Source: a virus | Lineage: Duplodnaviria; Heunggongvirae; Uroviricota; Caudoviricetes | Direction: 5' to 3' (one strand) | DNA: 64,000 bases | Virus record (IMG/VR): IMGVR_UViG_3300028920_001945 | Coordinates: 1-64,000 of that record | Program-made: the position numbers and the translations under genes | Notes under the pieces: generated by a model | The model's input: only the letters and a program-made list of their open reading frames with translations | Databases searched by the model: none | Told to the model about the DNA's origin: nothing | Shown here: piece after piece, positions 1,730 through 49,924 of the stretch | Numbering within the stretch: the stretch's first letter is position 1 | Layout: each line of letters opens with the position of its first letter

Positions 1730-2874
1730 GTTGTCCATTTGATTTAAGAAATAAGAAACAGATAATTAAGTTTGAAGAGATAGACCCTTATAATCCACAA
1801 AATACTGTAAGAGGATATATTAATAGAAGACAAGGTCAATTATATGGTGCATTATATATAACTCATGTTAATGGTAAAAGAAAATATCAACTAATATATT
1901 CAGCACCTAAACAACATTATCCATTTGATAAAAGTATAAAGGAAGAGAAGGTATTTAAATTTCCAGAATATGATAATATAGAACTCTATGAAAAGTTAGA
2001 TGGAACCTGTATCATAAGTTACCGATATACTGATGGAAAAGAATGGTTCTATACATATAAGACTAGATTAAGACCTTTTTTAGGAACTAGCAAATATGGA
2101 AACTTCTTTCAATTATGGAATGAAATATTAGATAAATATCCCATTATAGATAAAGAGCATAGAGAAACTGGAGATTATAACTATGTATATGAATTATATG
2201 GTAAGAGAAATAAAATACTAATAGATTATGATGTACCACTAGATACTAAACTCATATTTATAATAGATGGAAATGGAAATATAATTTCTCCAGATGATAC
2301 TGAAGGAGTTGAAGTTCCTAAATTAATAAGTTCACTCCAAAATATCCCATTAATTAATGATAGGTTAGATGAATGTTATAATGACTATCAAACCTTATTG
2401 GAAACCAATTTGCAAATAGATGAAGAAAACCATATAATGAAAGGTAAAGAGGGATTAGTATGGTATTTTATAAAAGATGGATATGCAGTTCAAATAAAAT
2501 GTAAACCTCCCAGTGTTCTTAAATATCATTGGAGTGGAGATGCAATACCATATGAATCTGTATATACTACTGTTATTAATGCATTTGAGAATTTTGATGA
2601 ACCAACTTATGATGATGTAGTGGAATTATTATTAGAAGAGTTTGAGCAAGGAAAAATAGATAAGTCAAGAACCAGAATAGAAAAATCGTTAGGTAAAATA
2701 TTATTTGATAAAAAGTTTTCATCTAAATTAGAAATAGATTATAGAGAACAAGGATTTGATATTAATAAGGATAAAGTAACTTGTATGAGATGGTTTGGAC
2801 AAAACTATCCAAGATCAGAAGCTAAAAGAATATATCAATTACTAATGAGATATGAAGAGAGGAAAAATATATGA
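1726..2874 (+). CDS. ATP-dependent RNA/DNA ligase-like covalent nucleotidyltransferase (Rnl2-like)
   Basis: Motif I KLDGT (EKLDGTCII), motif III-like YVYELYGK, motif IV EGLVWYF, motif V KCK, all in ligase order. 382 aa. Confidence 0.5.
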   Translation: MSCPFDLRNKKQIIKFEEIDPYNPQNTVRGYINRRQGQLYGALYITHVNGKRKYQLIYSAPKQHYPFDKSIKEEKVFKFPEYDNIELYEKLDGTCIISYRYTDGKEWFYTYKTRLRPFLGTSKYGNFFQLWNEILDKYPIIDKEHRETGDYNYVYELYGKRNKILIDYDVPLDTKLIFIIDGNGNIISPDDTEGVEVPKLISSLQNIPLINDRLDECYNDYQTLLETNLQIDEENHIMKGKEGLVWYFIKDGYAVQIKCKPPSVLKYHWSGDAIPYESVYTTVINAFENFDEPTYDDVVELLLEEFEQGKIDKSRTRIEKSLGKILFDKKFSSKLEIDYREQGFDINKDKVTCMRWFGQNYPRSEAKRIYQLLMRYEERKNI

Positions 2875-5389: not shown

Positions 5390-5575
5390 ATGCAGAAGGA
5401 ACATGCTATAATAGAAGCAAAGAAGGATAGAAAATGTTATCTCTGTAAAGAAAAAATTAAGAAAGGGGAGAGATGTTTAGGGATAAAAAGTTTAAGTTAT
5501 GGAAGATATGCTGGTTGTCACTTTAAACATTTTACCAGAGAATATTTAGATAACCTAATGGTGGAAAATATATGA
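5390..5575 (+). CDS. hypothetical Cys-rich small protein
   Basis: 61 aa with CYLC...C...C motifs. Ends LMVENI. Confidence 0.4.
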   Translation: MQKEHAIIEAKKDRKCYLCKEKIKKGERCLGIKSLSYGRYAGCHFKHFTREYLDNLMVENI

Positions 5576-7616: not shown

Positions 7617-7619
7617 GCA

Positions 7620-7934
7620 GTGGTTGGTGTAATGAGAGGCATTGTAGTCTGTGGAGCTACAGGAGAAGGGTGCAAATCCCTCACCCTGCATTTAAGGAGT
7701 GAAATAAATATGGAAGCATATGATGTTATCGAATTGTCTCTCGGTGAGAAGACAGAAGGAGATAAAATTGTCTTCAAGAGTATAGAAGACATGGAGCAGG
7801 CGTATAAGGACATCGACAATGGCAAAAATATTTATGTCAGAAAAGATGGACTTGTAACTAAAATACTTAATCAGATGGTTACCAACAAAATATATGATGG
7901 TAGCATAAGATTAAGTGCAAAAACAGATGAATAA
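7620..7934 (+). CDS. hypothetical protein (true start possibly at ATG 7710)
   Basis: The 5' 90 nt form an anomalously GC-rich segment. An internal ATG at 7710 has an AAGGAG SD 9 nt upstream. Confidence 0.45.
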   Translation: MVGVMRGIVVCGATGEGCKSLTLHLRSEINMEAYDVIELSLGEKTEGDKIVFKSIEDMEQAYKDIDNGKNIYVRKDGLVTKILNQMVTNKIYDGSIRLSAKTDE

Positions 7935-15746: not shown

Positions 15747-16076
15747 TTGCCCAAGATGTGGAGCACCATTATTTGGAGATGGAATTGGATTAGCATGGGT
15801 AAAGTAAGAGCAGATTATATTAAGAATAACTGTAAAGAAATATACCATTATTATTCAAATGAAGTAACAACTGATTTTGAATCCAACAAACAATTATTGA
15901 TGAAAGTAACTGATGTTAAGAATAAACGATTAAAAAACAGAATGGCTGGATATCTTGTTATTATAAAGAAAAAGGAAGGAAGAATAATTATACCTCCCAA
16001 GAAAGAGAAGAAGGCTAGAACTAAAAAGGAAAGAAAGAAAAATAGAAAAAGACAAGATAAAAAATGGATAGGATAA
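15747..16076 (+). CDS. hypothetical highly basic protein (K/R-rich tail)
   Basis: C-terminal KKKEGRIIIPPKKEKKARTKKERKKNRKRQDKK. The start may instead be the internal ATG near 15797. Confidence 0.4.
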   Translation: MPKMWSTIIWRWNWISMGKVRADYIKNNCKEIYHYYSNEVTTDFESNKQLLMKVTDVKNKRLKNRMAGYLVIIKKKEGRIIIPPKKEKKARTKKERKKNRKRQDKKWIG

Positions 16077-17256: not shown

Positions 17257-17790
17257 ATGACAAAATATAACATAAACGAACTACTCGAAAAGAAAAAAGA
17301 ACTCGAAGAACAAATTTTTGAAAAAGTAAGCTCCGTGAATGGAGAGGAACTTAAGTACAGAAAAGATGTAACTATTGATCATACAAGAGAAGATAGAACA
17401 TCTGAATATGTACCTAGACCAAAACAAAATATAGACCAATTCACTCAAGAGACATTCGGTCTTATAGATGAATTAGTTAAGGTCAAAACTGCTATTCAAA
17501 AATACAATGCTCAAAAAGTATTGGGTGAGCTACAGAAAAGAGAAGCAGTAAGAATCAAACATAAATATCTTGATTCTATAAAACACAATCTACCAGAAAA
17601 CAAAGAACACAAGAGACAAGTTACAAGGCAAGATAAAGATGGTGTTGCTTTAGAGACAACTGAAATTACAGTAGAACCTATGTTCGAGAAAAAAGACGTT
17701 GAGAAACGTATGAACGAATTTGCAGCTCAAGAGAGAAAAATAAATACTGATATTCAGAAACAAAACCTAAACGCTAAGATACAACTTTAG
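17257..17790 (+). CDS. hypothetical coiled-coil protein
   Basis: 177 aa with a strong AAAAGGAGG SD. Confidence 0.45.
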   Translation: MTKYNINELLEKKKELEEQIFEKVSSVNGEELKYRKDVTIDHTREDRTSEYVPRPKQNIDQFTQETFGLIDELVKVKTAIQKYNAQKVLGELQKREAVRIKHKYLDSIKHNLPENKEHKRQVTRQDKDGVALETTEITVEPMFEKKDVEKRMNEFAAQERKINTDIQKQNLNAKIQL

Positions 17791-17890
17791 ACTCACTTCG
17801 GTGAGAGATAGCAGGGGCAAAGGTGAGAGGTTTGAGAAGTTTAGCCTCTTTAAATAACTAAGCTTCATCCGTTGCATGGAATGCAACCAA

Positions 17891-17962
17891 ATAGATATAG
17901 GGTAATGGTTATCCCACAAGCCTCTGGAGCTTGATATCTCGGTTCGAATCCGAGTGTCTTTT
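17891..17962 (+). tRNA. tRNA-Gln(CUG)-like gene
   Basis: Hand-folded cloverleaf. Acceptor ATAGATA/TGTCTTT has one T-T mismatch. D-arm GGGT-AATGGTTA-TCCC (A14, G18G19, A21). Perfect anticodon stem CAAGC/GCTTG with loop CTCTGGA (U33, anticodon CTG). Variable loop ATAT. T-arm CTCGG-TTCGAAT-CCGAG. No encoded CCA. Confidence 0.55.
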
Positions 17963-18246
17963 GGATTGTATACCAACCTAGAGCTACTTAGACAACATAG
18001 AACTAAGTACCAAATTGACAATTCACTACAAAAACAATTTCACTAACTCACTACTAACAGATTTACTATTTACAGTTTATCCACCGACCTTTGACTGCTA
18101 TCTTAAACTTTATGCAATCGGGATGTAAAGAGCTAAAGGATAAGCCTCCAGGCTCATAAGATGCTATAATTGCCTATGTGTGGCCACCACAAAGTTAGGA
18201 TTCCCTACAAGGCCCTAATTGATGCATCTGAGAAACCTGGGTGTTT

Positions 18247-18271
18247 GCAGGTTCAATTCCTGTCATCCCCA
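18247..18271 (+). other. tRNA 3'-half-like element (T-arm plus acceptor 3' strand); 5' half not contiguous
   Basis: GCAGG-TTCAATT-CCTGT T-arm followed by CATCCCC-A. A complementary CGGGATG lies about 130 nt upstream at 18119-18125. Confidence 0.35.
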
Positions 18272-18346
18272 TTAAAACCCAGAAAAAATATCAAAAAGAA
18301 AAATGTAAAATGAATGTAATAAAAATATAAAGAAGGAGGAAAAAAT

Positions 18347-19015
18347 ATGACAAATATAAATATATTAGGTACTATAGCAATTGTTCTTGCTCTTATAGCA
18401 GTAGCTCTTGGAGGCTATGCAATATACGATAAGAAAGGAGAACAAGGAGAAGTAGGACCTATAGGATTAGAAGGTCCAATGGGACCAATGGGTCCACAAG
18501 GAGAGCAAGGTCCACCTGGAGAAGATGGCCTTGATGGAATTGATGGAGTCGATGGTGCAGTAGGACCACCTGGACCTAAAGGTAATAAAGGTAATCAGGG
18601 TAATCAAGGAAATCCTGGAGAGCAAGGCCCACAGGGAGAACCTGGAATTGATGGTGTAGATTTAGAACCTAATGATGCACCAGTAATAACTGTAGATGAT
18701 ACAGCTAGTTATGTAGAAGGCTGTGGAAAATATGATGATTATTGGTTCTCTATAGCTATAACTACAACTGATATAGAAGACGATTCCAGAAAAATCTGTT
18801 TATATTACAGATGGGATGAAATTGATCCATGGAATCTAGAGAAATCTTGGCCATTCTTAACTAATGCAGACATCATAACTGATTGGGAAGAGAATAAAGG
18901 TAATGAATATGGAGAAAATACAGAAACTCTTTATTGGTTAGTAGAAGTAATGGATGGAGAGAATCTAGTTTATCAGCAAGGTGAAACATCCTTAACAAAA
19001 CCTTTGTGTCCATAA
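18347..19015 (+). CDS. collagen-like triple-helix repeat protein with N-terminal membrane anchor
   Basis: About 35 uninterrupted G-X-Y triplets ([31 protein letters not shown]...). N-terminal hydrophobic helix. C-terminal about 110-aa globular domain. Confidence 0.85.
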
Positions 19016-36851: not shown

Positions 36852-37904
36852 ATGACAGAAAGGAAAAAGTATAAAATAGCAGTAATGCCAGGAGATGGTA
36901 TAGGAAAAGATGTGATGGACTGTGCCATGGTTATATTGAAACACATTGACCTAGATGCAAAATACTTTCATGAAGATATAGGATTAGATGCAAAAAAAAG
37001 AAACGGTACAGCATTATCAGATCATACTCTTAGAATATTAAAAGCATGCGATTGTTGCCTATTTGGAGCTGTATCAACAACAGATGAATCCACTATCTTA
37101 AGATTAAGACAAGAATTTGCTTTAAGTACTAACTTTAGACCTTGTAAAGGTAATGGAATAGATATTGCTATATTTAGAGAAAATACTGAAGATTTATATG
37201 CTCAAGTAGAATATAATCCAATCCCAAGAAGGTTAAGGAACTTCATTAATAAACACGAACGAATGAAAAAATTTAAATATACCCCAAATGAAGAAATGGC
37301 AATAGCTTTAAGGATTATTACTGTAAAAGCATGTACAAATATAGTAGCCAGGGCGTTTAGATTTGCAGCAAGAAATAATAAAAAGAAGATCACAGTAGTA
37401 GAAAAAGCTAACGTATTGAAAGAAACTGGAAGTATAATAATTAAAGCTGTTAAAGAAATATCTAAGAAGTATCCTAATATAGAAGTAGAGATAGTTAATA
37501 TAGATAATATGTGTATGCAATTAGTAAAGAACCCTAAAAATTATGAAGTTATAGTTACTACTAATTTATTTGGTGATATATTATCAGACTTATGTAGTCA
37601 ACTAGTTGGAGGAATTGGATATGTTGGTAGTGCAAATATTGGAAAAGATTTTGCATTGTTTGAACCCATTCATGGTAGTGCTCCAAAATATGCAGGGCAG
37701 TATAAAGTCAATCCCATAGGTATGATTAGGAGTATTGTACTCATGTTGGAATGGCTAGGCGAAACAAAAAAAGCTAAAGCATTAGATTTAGCTATAAATG
37801 AAGTTATAGAAGAAGGCAAAGCGAGAACATTTGATATGGGGGGAATTAATAATAGTTTAGAGGTAGCTGAAGAAATTGCAAAGAAATATGATAACTATAT
37901 ATGA
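36852..37904 (+). CDS. isocitrate/isopropylmalate/homoisocitrate dehydrogenase-family enzyme
   Basis: NLFGDILSDLCSQLVGGIGYVGSANIG signature and an IPGDGIG N-terminal motif. Confidence 0.85.
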   Translation: MTERKKYKIAVMPGDGIGKDVMDCAMVILKHIDLDAKYFHEDIGLDAKKRNGTALSDHTLRILKACDCCLFGAVSTTDESTILRLRQEFALSTNFRPCKGNGIDIAIFRENTEDLYAQVEYNPIPRRLRNFINKHERMKKFKYTPNEEMAIALRIITVKACTNIVARAFRFAARNNKKKITVVEKANVLKETGSIIIKAVKEISKKYPNIEVEIVNIDNMCMQLVKNPKNYEVIVTTNLFGDILSDLCSQLVGGIGYVGSANIGKDFALFEPIHGSAPKYAGQYKVNPIGMIRSIVLMLEWLGETKKAKALDLAINEVIEEGKARTFDMGGINNSLEVAEEIAKKYDNYI

Positions 37905-39003
37905 TACTACTTTAAGAGATGGAGAACAGATGCCTGGTGTATTCTTCACAAAACCTCAAAAGTTAGATATTGCAAGAAAATTAGATGAAGTGGGGATAGA
38001 TGAGATAGAAGCTGGATTTCCAGCTATATCCAATAGAGAAGCCGATATAGTGAAGTCAATAGTTAATGAAGGATTAGATGCTAATATATTAGGATTATCT
38101 AGATTAAATAAAAAGGATATAGATATAGCAGCATCATCAGATGTTGATAAGATTATATTATTTGTAGGAACTTCAGATTACCATTTGAAATATAAGCTCC
38201 ATACAACATTAAATGATTTAAAAGAAAAAATGAAAGATTGTATAGATTATGCAAAACAATATGGAGATGTAACATTTGGATTTGAAGATTCTACTAGGAC
38301 AGATATAAGTATATTAAGAGATCTATCTAAAATAGTAACTGAATGTGGTGCTAAGAGAATAGGAATTGCAGATACAGTTGGTTGTGCAACTCCAATTATG
38401 ATTAAAAAATATGTAACTTCTTTAAAAGAGATAACTAATATACCAATATCATTACATCTACATAACGATTTGGGTTTAGTTACAGCAAATGCTTTTGCAG
38501 GTTTAGAAGCAGGCTCTAATGTCTATGCAACAACTGTAAATGGTATAGGAGAAAGAGCAGGTAATCTTCCCCTAGAACAATTTGCTATGATACTTAAGTT
38601 ATTTTATAAAACACATATAGACACTACAAAATTATATGAATTATCCCAATTAGTATCACTATATTCCAAAGTGCCTATATATATGAATCAACCTCTAGTC
38701 GGTAAAAATGCATTTGCTCATGAGTCGGGAATACATGTAGCAGCAATTCAAGAGAATCCAATAACATATGAATTCATACCTCCAGAAATGGTTGGTAATA
38801 AGAGAAGATTTATATTAGGTAAACATAGTGGTAAGAAGTCTATAGAGATGAAACTTAAAGAATATGGATTAAAGACTAGTATCGATAATATATGTAAAAT
38901 ATTAGATAGAGTAAAGAGATTAGGAGAGATTCAGGGAGAGGTTAGTGATATAGAGTTTCTTAATATAACTAAGGAGATTATTAATGAGGGTATGGAGATA
39001 TAA
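37876..39003 (+). CDS. short LeuA/homocitrate-synthase/citramalate-synthase-family enzyme (DRE-TIM aldolase)
   Basis: IYDTTLRDGEQ motif and HxH metal site (LHLHND). 375 aa, with no LeuA regulatory domain. Confidence 0.85.
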   Translation: MQRNMITIYDTTLRDGEQMPGVFFTKPQKLDIARKLDEVGIDEIEAGFPAISNREADIVKSIVNEGLDANILGLSRLNKKDIDIAASSDVDKIILFVGTSDYHLKYKLHTTLNDLKEKMKDCIDYAKQYGDVTFGFEDSTRTDISILRDLSKIVTECGAKRIGIADTVGCATPIMIKKYVTSLKEITNIPISLHLHNDLGLVTANAFAGLEAGSNVYATTVNGIGERAGNLPLEQFAMILKLFYKTHIDTTKLYELSQLVSLYSKVPIYMNQPLVGKNAFAHESGIHVAAIQENPITYEFIPPEMVGNKRRFILGKHSGKKSIEMKLKEYGLKTSIDNICKILDRVKRLGEIQGEVSDIEFLNITKEIINEGMEI

Positions 39004-39487
39004 ACAAGACAACATAAATACAGATTTATTATTTCCTGGAAAGAGATGCTTTCTGGGTAGTGATGAAAAAACTCTAAAGAAATATATATTAGAAGATTTA
39101 GATGAGACATTTGCTAAAGAAGTGCAACCTGGGGATATTATAATAGCAAATAAGAACTTTGGATGTGGAAGCTCAAGAGAACATCCAGTATTAGGCTTAA
39201 AGGCAGTTGGAATTGTAGCCGTTATTGCAGAAAGTTTTGCTAGAATATTTTTTAGATGTTCTATTAATAATGGATTAACCATAATAGAATCTCCAGAAAT
39301 GGTAAGAAGATACAAAAATGGAGATAAAGTTAGTGTATATGAGAGAATTGGAATAGTAAGAATTGGTGATAATGTTTATCATATTCCAAAAATGAATAAT
39401 GAAATATTGGAAATAAAGAAAAATGGCGGACTACTTGAATACACAAGAAAAAAACTCAGAGAAAAAAACATTCAAAATAAAGCCTGA
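38984..39487 (+). CDS. LeuD-like aconitase-family small subunit (no large subunit in window)
   Basis: ANKNFGCGSSREHP swivel-domain signature. 167 aa. Confidence 0.85.
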   Translation: MRVWRYKQDNINTDLLFPGKRCFLGSDEKTLKKYILEDLDETFAKEVQPGDIIIANKNFGCGSSREHPVLGLKAVGIVAVIAESFARIFFRCSINNGLTIIESPEMVRRYKNGDKVSVYERIGIVRIGDNVYHIPKMNNEILEIKKNGGLLEYTRKKLREKNIQNKA

Positions 39488-40055
39488 AACATACGTAGTA
39501 TTATTTAGTGGTGGGTTAGATAGTACTTATGCTCTATGGTACTGTGTGGCAAAGACAGATAATCCTGTTCATACACACCATGTTATTATAAGAAATGATG
39601 TATCAAAGAGATGGAAAGAAGAAAGAGAAGCTTGTAGGGATATTGTAGATTATTTACAAAAGAATTATAGAGATTTTGATTATTCAGAGTCTGGATTTGA
39701 TTTCTTTAATTTTAGAAATGTAAATTGGGATGTTGATATAGCTTTAATAGCTGGAATTATGGTAGCAAGAAATATAATGGGACTTAAGAGAATAGTATCT
39801 GGACCCACAAAAAGTGATTTAGATAGAAATCCCCATATTCCATCAGATATATTGAAGAGTGCAATTATGCCTAAAGACTGTATATATGAAGAAGGTTTTC
39901 GTCCCGGTATAACTAAAACTAAAAAAGAGATATATGATGAAATGCCTAAAGAATTATCCAAATTAGCATGGTCATGTAGACATCCAAATAATGGTAAGCC
40001 ATGTGGTGAATGTAAGGCATGTAGGCTTAGAATAGAAGAAGGAATCCCTTTATAA
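39423..40055 (+). CDS. queC: QueC-like PP-loop ATPase (7-cyano-7-deazaguanine synthase family), paralog 1
   Basis: PP-loop VVLFSGGLDST. C-terminal zinc motif WSCRHPNNGKPCGECKACRLR. 5' 65 nt overlap the LeuD-like gene. Confidence 0.75.
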   Translation: MADYLNTQEKNSEKKTFKIKPETYVVLFSGGLDSTYALWYCVAKTDNPVHTHHVIIRNDVSKRWKEEREACRDIVDYLQKNYRDFDYSESGFDFFNFRNVNWDVDIALIAGIMVARNIMGLKRIVSGPTKSDLDRNPHIPSDILKSAIMPKDCIYEEGFRPGITKTKKEIYDEMPKELSKLAWSCRHPNNGKPCGECKACRLRIEEGIPL

Positions 40056-40700
40056 ATGACTAAAGAAAAGAAAAAAATTGTAATTAAACCTCTTAAAATA
40101 GTTATGTTTAGTGGTGGACTTGATAGTACATTTATTCTTTGGTTTTATCTTACAAAAACAAAGTTTGATGTACATGTGCATCATATAAGAATTAGAAACT
40201 CTATCTCAAAAAGATGGGAAAAGGAAGATGAAGCAGTAAAAAATATAATAGAATATTGTAAAGAAAATTATAGGAAATTTACATATTCAGAATCTGCATT
40301 CGACTTCTTTGGTTTTCCTAATGTAAACTGGGATGTAGATGTAGCAGGTTTTGTAGGAACTATGGTTGCTAGAAGTCTTATTATATATAGAAATGAAGAA
40401 CCTCTTAATAGACCCATGACTATATGTGTAGGAGCCTGTAAGGACGATGGAATCAATGAACATAGACAATTAGGAATATTGGATGGTATCATAAGAAACT
40501 CTTCATTACTAGAACCAACCACTACACCTAGAGCTGAAAGAATAGCCTCTAATATGACTAAAAAACAAATGCTAGAAAAGATGCCCAAAGAATTATCAGA
40601 TTTAACTTGGTCTTGCAGAATTCCAAAGGCAGGTAAACCCTGTGGTAAATGTAAATCATGTAAAATTATAAATAAAGCAAAGGAAGAATTGGGATGGTAA
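40056..40700 (+). CDS. queC: QueC-like PP-loop ATPase, paralog 2
   Basis: PP-loop IVMFSGGLDST. C-terminal zinc motif WSCRIPKAGKPCGKCKSCKII. Confidence 0.75.
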   Translation: MTKEKKKIVIKPLKIVMFSGGLDSTFILWFYLTKTKFDVHVHHIRIRNSISKRWEKEDEAVKNIIEYCKENYRKFTYSESAFDFFGFPNVNWDVDVAGFVGTMVARSLIIYRNEEPLNRPMTICVGACKDDGINEHRQLGILDGIIRNSSLLEPTTTPRAERIASNMTKKQMLEKMPKELSDLTWSCRIPKAGKPCGKCKSCKIINKAKEELGW

Positions 40701-48731: not shown

Positions 48732-49924
48732 TGAGAGTATTCAAGAAAATATCAACTCCTTTTGTAGATTCAAGACCTGATAAAGCTATTATAGTAGTGA
48801 ATGGAATAGACCCACAAGTAAATACTATAAAGGCTTTTATACAGGCGTGTGACGATTATAAGATCAGTTATACAGTTTTTGTTAATAAGACAGATTGTTT
48901 AGAGGATGAAAAGTATACAGTTGGTTATATTAAGCAATCTCTAAATTTAAAAGATATTCAGTTTGGCTCTGCTAAAACTGGAAAGGGATTCAAAAAATTA
49001 GCAACATATCTAGACCTGTGGTTTGGTAAGAGAATTATAGTTTTGGGTGTATTTAATTCTGGAAAGACATCTTTAATAAATAGATTAACAGGAGAAAACC
49101 TTAAGGTAGGAACAATACCTGGAACTACTCTAGAATTTACAGAAATACCTGTTAATGGAACAGTTAAGAATATAGGAAAAGAAAATGAGGAAAAGATAGA
49201 AACAGTCTTAATAGATTCTGTAGGTCAATTAATAGATATACATAAACCCATGATGGTATCTATAGATTTTAGTGGTTGTATAACCGGATATGAAAAAATA
49301 AATAAAGTATTTGAAGAAGAAATATTGGGATTAGTTGAAACTCAAGAAAGAGTTAAGAATGATATATTTACAGTAGTTAAGGTTATTAAGCAAGCTTTAT
49401 CAGAAGGTAATAAAATTATAATTACAGGAGCTGGAGCATCAGCTTTAGTAGCTAAAGAGATGGCTGGGCAAGGAACAGAATGTGGTTTACCAATTTTGGT
49501 ATTTACTAATGATGGAGCTGAATTACAACCTGTAACATTCTCAAAGGGTCTAGGAGAACAAGAAGGTGGTTTATCTAAATATATAGCTAATGCAATTAAT
49601 CCAGGAGATATAGTTATAGGAATTAGTGCATCAGGTGGTACTGGATTTGTATTTGATACCTTAAGAAGAGGTAGAGAAAAGAAAGCAATTCCCATAGCTA
49701 TAACAGAGAATTCTGATACACCTTTAGGACATGCAGCTCTATATATAATAAAAAGTGAAGCTAAACCAGAAGGACCCAGTAGTTCCAAAATACAAACAGC
49801 CCATTTGGTTATAGGCCATGCCTTAATATTAACACTAGCAGATGAACTAGGAGTATCAGCTGATGAATCAGTTGGATATATGTTACCAGAAATATTAGAA
49901 AATAAAAAAATGGGAATTAAATAA
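48731..49924 (+). CDS. circularly permuted GTPase fused to SIS (sugar isomerase) domain
   Basis: The order G4 VNKTD, then G5 SAKTG, then G1 GVFNSGKTSLINRL, then G2 GTT, then G3 DSVG is the cpGTPase topology (YlqF/YqeH-like). The C-terminal half has SIS motifs IIITGAGAS...VIGISASGGTG. Confidence 0.6.
   Translation: MRVFKKISTPFVDSRPDKAIIVVNGIDPQVNTIKAFIQACDDYKISYTVFVNKTDCLEDEKYTVGYIKQSLNLKDIQFGSAKTGKGFKKLATYLDLWFGKRIIVLGVFNSGKTSLINRLTGENLKVGTIPGTTLEFTEIPVNGTVKNIGKENEEKIETVLIDSVGQLIDIHKPMMVSIDFSGCITGYEKINKVFEEEILGLVETQERVKNDIFTVVKVIKQALSEGNKIIITGAGASALVAKEMAGQGTECGLPILVFTNDGAELQPVTFSKGLGEQEGGLSKYIANAINPGDIVIGISASGGTGFVFDTLRRGREKKAIPIAITENSDTPLGHAALYIIKSEAKPEGPSSSKIQTAHLVIGHALILTLADELGVSADESVGYMLPEILENKKMGIK

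Follow-up and report, generated by a model that had tools for sequence, protein, structure and literature searches.

We consider it likely that positions 18119/20-18271 of the DNA studied here form a virus-borne tRNA gene with the anticodon CAU, hereafter tRNA(CAU), which carries a 76-nt intron of the archaeal type. The DNA is a stretch of 64,000 nucleotides (called the window in what follows; positions 1 to 64,000 of the IMG/VR record IMGVR_UViG_3300028920_001945, Caudoviricetes), and the putative gene lies in a non-coding island at 17791-18346, together with a tRNA-Gln(CUG). Judging from its sequence, it is highly likely to be a genuine tRNA gene with an intron of the bulge-helix-bulge (BHB) kind, and the chance that its product is a working decoder appears somewhat better than even.

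The predicted 5' exon (coordinates of all features are given in Table 1) comprises the acceptor 5' strand (C)GGGATG, a deviant D region with the D-loop AAAGGATA, in which G18 and G19 are present, the anticodon-stem strand CCAGG (18148-18152) and the loop positions 32-37, CTCATA. The predicted 3' exon starts with A38 and continues with CCTGG (18236-18240), a variable loop, the T-arm GCAGG-TTCAATT-CCTGT (18247-18263), the acceptor strand CATCCCC (18264-18270) and the discriminator A (18271), with no encoded CCA. CGGGATG (18119-18125) pairs with the 3' acceptor strand through six Watson-Crick pairs and one C.C mismatch. Around the insert, which occupies the canonical position 37/38, a central 4-bp helix CTCA (18153-18156)/TGAG (18229-18232) is followed by an intron helix GATGC (18160-18164)/GCATC (18224-18228), and the two bulges have 3 nt each, TAA (18157-18159) and AAA (18233-18235). 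The strict hBHBh' form is present, CCAGG-CUCA-[UAA]-GAUGC...GCAUC-UGAG-[AAA]-CCUGG, and its pairs are Watson-Crick in 14 cases out of 14. The splicing endonuclease cuts after the second nucleotide of each BHB bulge, and excising 18159-18234 leaves the 7-nt loop CUCAUAA, with U33 and A37. Unconstrained folding of 18119-18273 with RNAfold gives the acceptor, anticodon and T stems and the BHB. The first-pass annotation of this DNA had noticed the T-arm and acceptor strand at 18247-18271 with a 5' partner about 130 nt upstream, and had suggested an intron-containing or split tRNA processed through BHB sites. The two elements and the six pairs between them are indeed there, and the anticodon arm (18148-18152/18236-18240), which had been overlooked, bears out the intron, as the splice junctions fall in the two 3-nt bulges. 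A split tRNA is not needed, because the halves are contiguous on one strand, in cis, collinear and 76 nt apart.

Splicing in silico at the sites defined by the BHB gave a product that ARAGORN calls tRNA-Met(CAU) at its default threshold. At the same threshold the program made no call in 3.84 Mb of shuffled window, and none of 3000 products of shuffled exons was called a tRNA. When deletions of 60-95 nt were moved across the region, a tRNA came from only 7 of 2645, all of them in the anticodon loop (six of exactly 76 nt and one of 74 nt), and the predicted deletion was included. Three of the 76-nt deletions, at 18158-18160 and with the same product, yield tRNA-Met(CAU), and the other tRNA-giving deletions lie within 6 nt. 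We also used a strict scanner, which requires a BHB at 37/38, U33, R37, a T-arm with TTCRA and at least six of seven acceptor pairs; in 128 kb (both strands of the window) its one match was the tRNA(CAU) locus, as against 24 matches in the window when only a loose BHB was asked for. This was the kind of motif search that the first-pass annotation had proposed as a check, and it came out in favour of the gene. On the genomic sequence ARAGORN finds tRNA(CAU) only in intron mode with the relaxed threshold -ps90; we did not rely on this call alone, since in related loci this setting yields many false intron-tRNAs, some of them inside coding sequence. Two other contigs, one from JGI and one from ENA, have the island region without a single base difference, and this identity across three independent assemblies indicates that it is not an assembly artefact.

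Several observations, however, weigh against a sound tRNA gene. The canonical cloverleaf body is not attained: the D-stem is either a weak GAGC/GCCT without nucleotide 26 or a good 3-bp GCT/AGC (canonical 4 bp) displaced by 3 nt, with a connector of 5 nt (canonical 2 nt, positions 8-9), there are 6 nt in the variable loop (canonical 4-5), and a mismatch is left at C1.C72 or U7.U66. ARAGORN in default settings, with or without intron mode, returns only tRNA-Gln at the island, and the Rfam tRNA model fails to match the gene in its unspliced form, even with a limit of E<=10, on an interval of 901 nt or of 181 nt, a covariance result that applies to the genomic form only. The same model scores an intron-containing tRNA-Met of another viral contig (L061, described below) at 48.1 bits across its intron; since that gene was found and tRNA(CAU) was missed, the exons of tRNA(CAU) must be clearly sub-canonical. 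The minimum free energy (MFE) of the precursor has a z-score of only -1.6, and no promoter of its own was seen at the canonical distance from tRNA(CAU). No homologue was found among the diverged relatives fetched, and the only copies are identical ones, so that covariation gives no support; one scan of genome contigs with a restrictive exon pattern returned no close cellular counterpart, its only hits being an unrelated Woesearchaeota tRNA-Met and a tandem pair of bacterial tRNAs. The gene is absent from the related contigs L005, L050, L053, L055, L057 and L067-L070; in the metagenome loci anchored on PolB and in those anchored on the DUF6847-like gene that precedes the island, the island was present and tRNA(CAU) never. 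The upstream protein and the 3' element had no match in the viral contigs searched, and blastn against phage and plasmid records recovered generic T-arm segments only. The first-pass annotation had stated that its reading would fall if tRNA scanners saw only the Gln tRNA and covariance models scored the 3' element as random. In default modes this is literally the outcome, but the splice-then-scan result and the deletion scan show it to be a failure of sensitivity. We attribute the silence of the default scanners to the intron and the deviant D region, and the Rfam miss of the unspliced gene to the deviant tRNA body.

The same irregularities could mean that the element is a host intron-containing tRNA(CAU) copied at the DNA level and now decaying by drift, perhaps still cut at its BHB but with a product that is not a working tRNA. 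The deviant D region, the 6-nt variable loop, the terminal mismatch and the missing Rfam match would all fit such a history, and so would the restriction of tRNA(CAU) to one lineage and its place at a cargo position that varies: L005 and L050 have two small open reading frames (ORFs) there instead. We nevertheless consider decay unlikely, as the BHB with its 14 pairs is intact, as are the three other stems, the gene retains the GG of the D-loop, U33, A37 and the T-loop TTCAATT, and the spliced product passes ARAGORN at default. Moreover, virus tRNAs are often non-canonical, and the tRNA-Gln of this window itself has mismatches in the acceptor and D stems. That a T-arm-like hairpin and complementary strands came to lie together by chance, an idea to which the false intron-tRNAs of relaxed ARAGORN lend some colour, is effectively refuted by the shuffled controls, the specificity of the deletion scan and the single match of the strict scanner.

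Two other explanations give the sequence a role outside translation. The element could be a viral attachment site (attP), copying a host intron-containing tRNA gene so as to integrate into it. tRNA genes are common integration targets of archaeal viruses and proviruses (PMC4090602; PMC8651126), and the element lies in an intergenic cargo spot. This is very unlikely, however, because no integrase or recombinase family was found in the 51 window ORFs of at least 150 aa or in about 8 kb further upstream (about 72 kb in all), the gene is complete, with its 5' acceptor strand and D-loop GG, instead of a 3' core alone, and the deviant D region does not look like an exact copy of a working host gene; in addition no genome matched the exon pattern, although that test was narrow, with one restrictive pattern. 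The att core that the first-pass annotation had put forward as its other reading consequently finds no support. Selection might instead act on the 76-nt intron, released as a stable, possibly circular RNA, with the tRNA-like exons serving only to recruit the endonuclease. Archaeal BHB introns are known to be released and circularised, and a perfect BHB beside an imperfect tRNA body is what this idea would lead one to expect. We hold it to be quite improbable, since the intron alone has an unremarkable structure (z = -1.67; 11 of 200 shuffled sequences fold equally well), it has no Rfam match on its own strand and no convincing C/D boxes are visible by eye. The proposal that the intron is a specially stable RNA is thus unsupported. 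A box C/D guide of the type borne by the tRNA-Trp and tRNA-Met introns of Euryarchaeota was also considered and ruled out: by eye there are only degenerate AAGAUGC and UUGAUGC words and one CUGA overlapping the BHB helix, without guide spacing, and Rfam has no snoRNA-family match for the intron.

If the tRNA gene reading is correct, its maturation might proceed as follows. Transcription would probably start from the TATA-like box upstream of tRNA-Gln (17849-17856) and give one precursor that also contains tRNA-Gln and the G-poor tract lying between the two tRNAs. The precursor can fold into a cloverleaf whose anticodon stem is extended by the 4-bp helix between the two 3-nt bulges and then by the intron helix. 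Following what is known of archaeal tRNA splicing, the EndA of the host would cut between 18158 and 18159 and between 18234 and 18235, and a ligase of the RtcB type would join the exons into the loop C32-U33-C34-A35-U36-A37-A38, and the intron would be set free, probably in circular form. The ends of the precursor would be trimmed by RNase P and RNase Z. The mature tRNA would read AUG as Met, or AUA as Ile if the TiaS of the host turned C34 into agmatidine.

In archaea the anticodon CAU is common to tRNA-Met and to tRNA-Ile2, in which C34 becomes agmatidine. The anticodon stem of tRNA(CAU) does not have the three consecutive G-C pairs of initiator tRNAs, and it is therefore of the elongator type. 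Determinants by which archaeal tRNA-Ile2 could be told from tRNA-Met were sought in the literature, but nothing usable came up. The window is all plus strand, with 30.6% GC, and in the 74 plus-strand ORFs taken for the codon count ATA is the fourth commonest codon (59 per 1000, 66% of Ile codons), 2.5 times as frequent as ATG (23 per 1000). Because ATA is so much commoner than ATG, it is plausible that tRNA(CAU) is Ile2 rather than Met; if it is, we would have a clear example of a virus that provides the decoder of the codon in which its own usage is most biased.

The host is probably an archaeon. The window encodes a ribosomal protein of the S17e family, which is specific to archaea and eukaryotes (15795-16076, Pfam 41.6 bits), and the gene is kept in related contigs (L053 788-1066 and L055 742-1008). 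On this basis, we suppose that an archaeal host supplies the splicing enzymes. To our knowledge, a BHB intron can be removed only by an archaeal or eukaryotic splicing endonuclease, and the intron and the S17e gene together point to a virus that infects archaea. No member of the EndA and RtcB families was found in the approximately 72 kb examined (window ORFs and about 8 kb further upstream), so that splicing would have to rely on the archaeal host. Ribosomal proteins have rarely been reported in archaeal viruses, L21e being mentioned (PMC8651126). The window comes from a virus of about 116 kb, and its PolB delimits an uncultivated family with contigs of 60-155 kb; among classified viruses, a Halorubrum tailed virus has the nearest PolB, a partial match with only 25% identity. 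Genes of archaeal context in the window are PolB, an AEP primase, a Rad51/RadA-like ATPase and an ERCC4-HhH nuclease; genes of phage type are GP88, YopX and HNH; and RNR, QueC-like genes and many genes of sugar and amino-acid metabolism are also encoded. Since PolB has no close classified relative, the combination of a BHB intron and S17e would be useful as a sequence-level marker of an archaeal host for this family. A weak hint at the host lineage could be taken from the isopropylmalate-dehydrogenase-like gene, whose best cellular matches, about 53% identical, belong to Thermoplasmatota and various bacteria.

An intron-containing tRNA in an archaeal virus is already known, with one annotated precedent, and what is new here is the unclassified virus family. 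The record of Halovirus HGTV-1 (NC_021328) annotates 'tRNA Ala (tgc) + Intron' at 49226-49328 on the minus strand, which ARAGORN recovers in intron mode, and according to a 2026 reanalysis one HGTV-1 tRNA gene carries an intron (PMC13532342). As in the window, the intron is at 37/38 and an hBHBh' can be drawn by eye, CTTGC-TTTG-[CAA]-GAG...CTC-CAAA-[TTA]-GCAAG. HGTV-1 has 34-36 tRNAs, the ligases RtcB and Rnl2 and a CCA-adding enzyme (PMC8651126). It is a haloarchaeal virus, rich in GC, and its intron has 31 nt in a tRNA of the isotype Ala, whereas the virus studied here has 31% GC, is unclassified, has 3 tRNAs in 64 kb and shows no RNA-repair or splicing genes in about 72 kb, and its tRNA(CAU) differs by the 76-nt intron, the anticodon and the deviant body. 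The retention of an intron would show that acquisition of the tRNA took place at the level of DNA, not by retro-copying of a mature tRNA. Genes of this sort are missed by bacterial-mode tRNA scans of viral metagenomes, which leaves a blind spot.

In the genomes of archaea, tRNA-Met genes interrupted by an intron at 37/38 are common. One of them, in a Woesearchaeota metagenome-assembled genome (L048, 6672-6828), shares with tRNA(CAU) the CCAGG/CCTGG stem, the loop and the 37/38 position. Its intron has 64-65 nt instead of 76, its exons are fully canonical and beyond the anticodon arm they have only generic tRNA features in common with those of the window; moreover its intron has box C/D-like words, GGATGA...CTGA...ATGATGA...CTGA, whereas nothing in the window intron is convincing as a C/D box. 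The guide upstream of D' in L048, read by eye, could pair with the anticodon loop, with C34 as the target of 2'-O-methylation. The uncultivated viral contig L061 (IMGVR_UViG_3300028840_002151, 5434-5573) has a CAU tRNA with an insert of about 65 nt in the anticodon loop; it has A1-U72 and canonical exons, but by eye the central 4-bp helix is not formed and its BHB is relaxed, while that of the window is strict. Split tRNA genes of the Nanoarchaeum equitans type and permuted ones depend on the same BHB endonuclease chemistry, with halves at separate loci or permuted, whereas those of the window are collinear and 76 nt apart. Group I introns are found in the anticodon loop of bacterial tRNAs as well, where they exceed 200 nt and are self-splicing; the insert of the window has 76 nt, BHB geometry and no match to Rfam group I introns.

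The island as a whole (556 nt) is the longest stretch of the window without a plus-strand ORF of at least 60 aa. Only ORFs of 30-47 aa, or an 84-aa ORF on the minus strand overlapping the tRNA, are found inside it. The island lies between a 177-aa DUF6847-like gene (stop at 17788-17790) and a gene with collagen repeats. The first-pass annotation had described it as non-coding, with a tRNA-Gln(CUG), three upstream hairpins and a G-depleted spacer, and all these items were recovered within 1-2 nt of where it had placed them. Its three hairpins can all be read from the sequence, and RNAfold reproduces the first two. At E<=10 Rfam also returned weak matches on the island to GadY (minus strand), PreQ1 and a tmRNA fragment, far below gathering scores, which we treated as noise, and ARAGORN -m found no tmRNA. 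The downstream gene (18347-19015) encodes an N-terminal hydrophobic segment and collagen-like G-X-Y repeats, and is kept in several relatives (L050 and L055).

Table 1 Features of the island and corresponding loci in related contigs; elements of tRNA(CAU) are predictions
Feature	Position	Strand	Basis or remark
Hairpin 1, CTCAC-TTCG-GTGAG	17792-17805	+	Sequence, RNAfold; directly after the stop codon of the DUF6847-like gene
Hairpin 2, inverted repeat GAGAGG...CCTCTT	17825-17850	+	RNAfold; adjoins the TATA-like box
TTTAAATA, archaeal TATA-box-like element	17849-17856	+	About 35 nt upstream of tRNA-Gln; conservation
Hairpin 3, GTTGCA-TGGAA-TGCAAC	17871-17887	+	Sequence; between the TATA-like box and tRNA-Gln
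tRNA-Gln(CUG), first pair A1-U72	17890-17963	+	ARAGORN (anticodon CTG)
G-poor unstructured tract with TTNAC(A/T)A-like words, ending ...CTTTGACT	17964-18118	+	Composition, profile hidden Markov model
tRNA(CAU), putative 5' exon	18119-18158	+	ARAGORN intron mode -ps90, MFE fold, splice-then-scan
tRNA(CAU), putative intron, 76 nt, position 37/38	18159-18234	+	Unconstrained MFE, strict scanner, deletion scan
tRNA(CAU), putative 3' exon	18235-18271	+	Sequence, fold, ARAGORN
tRNA at the tRNA-Gln position, L068 (UUA)	2124-2194		Above Rfam threshold, short-variable-arm body
tRNA at the tRNA-Gln position, L069 (UUA)	2109-2172		Above Rfam threshold, short-variable-arm body
tRNA at the tRNA-Gln position, L070 (CAA)	2215-2287		Above Rfam threshold, short-variable-arm body
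Conserved unit, window	17791-18118		
Conserved unit, L005	4687-5025		
Conserved unit, L053	3035-3372		
Conserved unit, L055	2173-2512		
Conserved unit, L057	3032-3335		
Conserved unit, L067	2038-2315		
Conserved unit, L068	2053-2352		
Conserved unit, L069	2035-2321		
Conserved unit, L070	2113-2434		

The tRNA-Gln(CUG) reported earlier was confirmed both by ARAGORN and by the Rfam model RF00005, with 55.8 bits against a gathering score of 29 (E 3.5e-11, at 17891-17962). Its orthologue in L005 and L050 has the anticodon UUG and shows compensatory changes in the anticodon and acceptor stems. CAG, the codon of the encoded tRNA-Gln(CUG), is the rarer of the Gln codons (6 versus 18 per 1000).

When relatives were collected through the DUF6847-like gene (identity 53-77% and lower), all of them had the unit formed by the leader, the tRNA-Gln position and the G-poor tract. 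Its plan, always after that gene, is a hairpin behind the stop codon, a co-varying stem adjoining TTAAATAA, then either a tRNA or a rod hairpin within a bracketing stem, and finally a G-poor tail. Hairpin 1 is probably an mRNA 3'-end or terminator-type hairpin, and a hairpin of unrelated sequence occupies its position in L053, L055 and L057 according to RNAfold, and in L005 by eye only. Hairpin 2 is preceded by a conserved GGCAAAG motif and its stem co-varies, being GCAAGG/CCTTG in L053 and L055, CGAGG/CCTCG in L057 and, by eye, GCAAGG/CCTTG in L005; the two hairpins seen by eye in L005 were not returned by RNAfold. The TATA-like box, which we infer to be the promoter of the non-coding unit, contains the word TTAAATAA, invariant in the window, L005, L053 and L055, with TTAAAAAT in L057. 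In context, RNAfold does not form hairpin 3 but pairs its segment (ATGCAACCAAA) with TTTGGATTGTAT just 3' of tRNA-Gln. An equivalent stem, GAUAUAU/AUAUAUC, brackets the tRNA in L005 and the rod hairpin in L053 and L055 (RNAfold), and the model folds suggest that the hairpin-3 segment may contribute to a long-range stem enclosing the tRNA.

The anticodon of the tRNA module varies among lineages, being CUG in the window, UUG in L005 and L050, UUA in L068 and L069 and CAA in L070, with Rfam scores of 37-56 bits. A tRNA with the anticodon UUA would read the stop codon TAA; recoding of TAA in L068 and L069 was rejected on these data, as TAA is a frequent ordinary stop there (3.5 kb per locus).

Of the 155 nt of the G-poor tract 14 are G (9%), whereas the window averages 19.5 +/- 4.0 G per 100 nt, and the tract is among the segments of the window with the lowest G content. 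The repeats CACTA (three times), TCACT (three times) and ACTAAC (twice) occur in it. The depletion and the repeats noted in the first-pass annotation are therefore present, but its wording, almost devoid of G, was too strong. As plus-strand RNA the tract is nearly devoid of structure, with an MFE of -13.5 kcal/mol compared with -23.7 for coding windows of equal length. Its complementarity to the rest of the window does not go beyond chance, which rules it out as an antisense to window genes, and single-nucleotide indels between lineages rule it out as coding sequence. The tail can be aligned in nine lineages (6-15% G, about 145 nt), and the profile hidden Markov model gives one match per locus, with E from 1e-15 to 1e-28. 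Homology between the window and L005 ends around 18112, just before tRNA(CAU). From these comparisons tRNA(CAU) is read as lineage-specific cargo, placed after the end of the conserved non-coding unit.

The conserved unit itself seems most likely to be a non-coding RNA driven by a promoter, with a handle in the form of a tRNA or hairpin, and a DNA-level array of protein-binding sites would be the alternative. A more detailed picture, doubtful at present, makes of the whole island an undescribed viral non-coding RNA unit: transcribed from the TATA-like promoter, it would use the tRNA or rod hairpin as a handle for processing or stability and its tail of about 145 nt, with TTNACA, ACA and UAC words, as a decoy or sponge for an RNA-binding protein or a sequence-specific endoribonuclease of the host, and the tRNA with the BHB intron would be appended cargo. 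The succession of promoter, tRNA module and G-poor tail may be regarded as a candidate for a new viral non-coding element.

The third of the three tRNAs of the window, tRNA-His(GUG), lies at 7617-7690, immediately after the stop of a GP88-family gene and about 20 nt before a 74-aa ORF, and no island of the kind seen around tRNA-Gln surrounds it. At 36852-40700 the window has a block of metabolic and modification genes (an isopropylmalate/isocitrate dehydrogenase, an HMGL-like homocitrate/isopropylmalate synthase and an aconitase small-subunit-like gene), in which two QueC-like PP-loop proteins come after the metabolic genes. A related contig, L009 (1-720), has a tRNA-Met (188-266) and an odd tRNA with an insert (371-492), the T-arm of which is identical over 17 nt to that of tRNA(CAU). 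Three repeated structured elements in the same contig share GTGTAG...TTACTTCG...CGCTTATCTCC, and the same words are found inside the insert; from their sequence, these repeats could be non-canonical introns or pieces of disrupted tRNAs.

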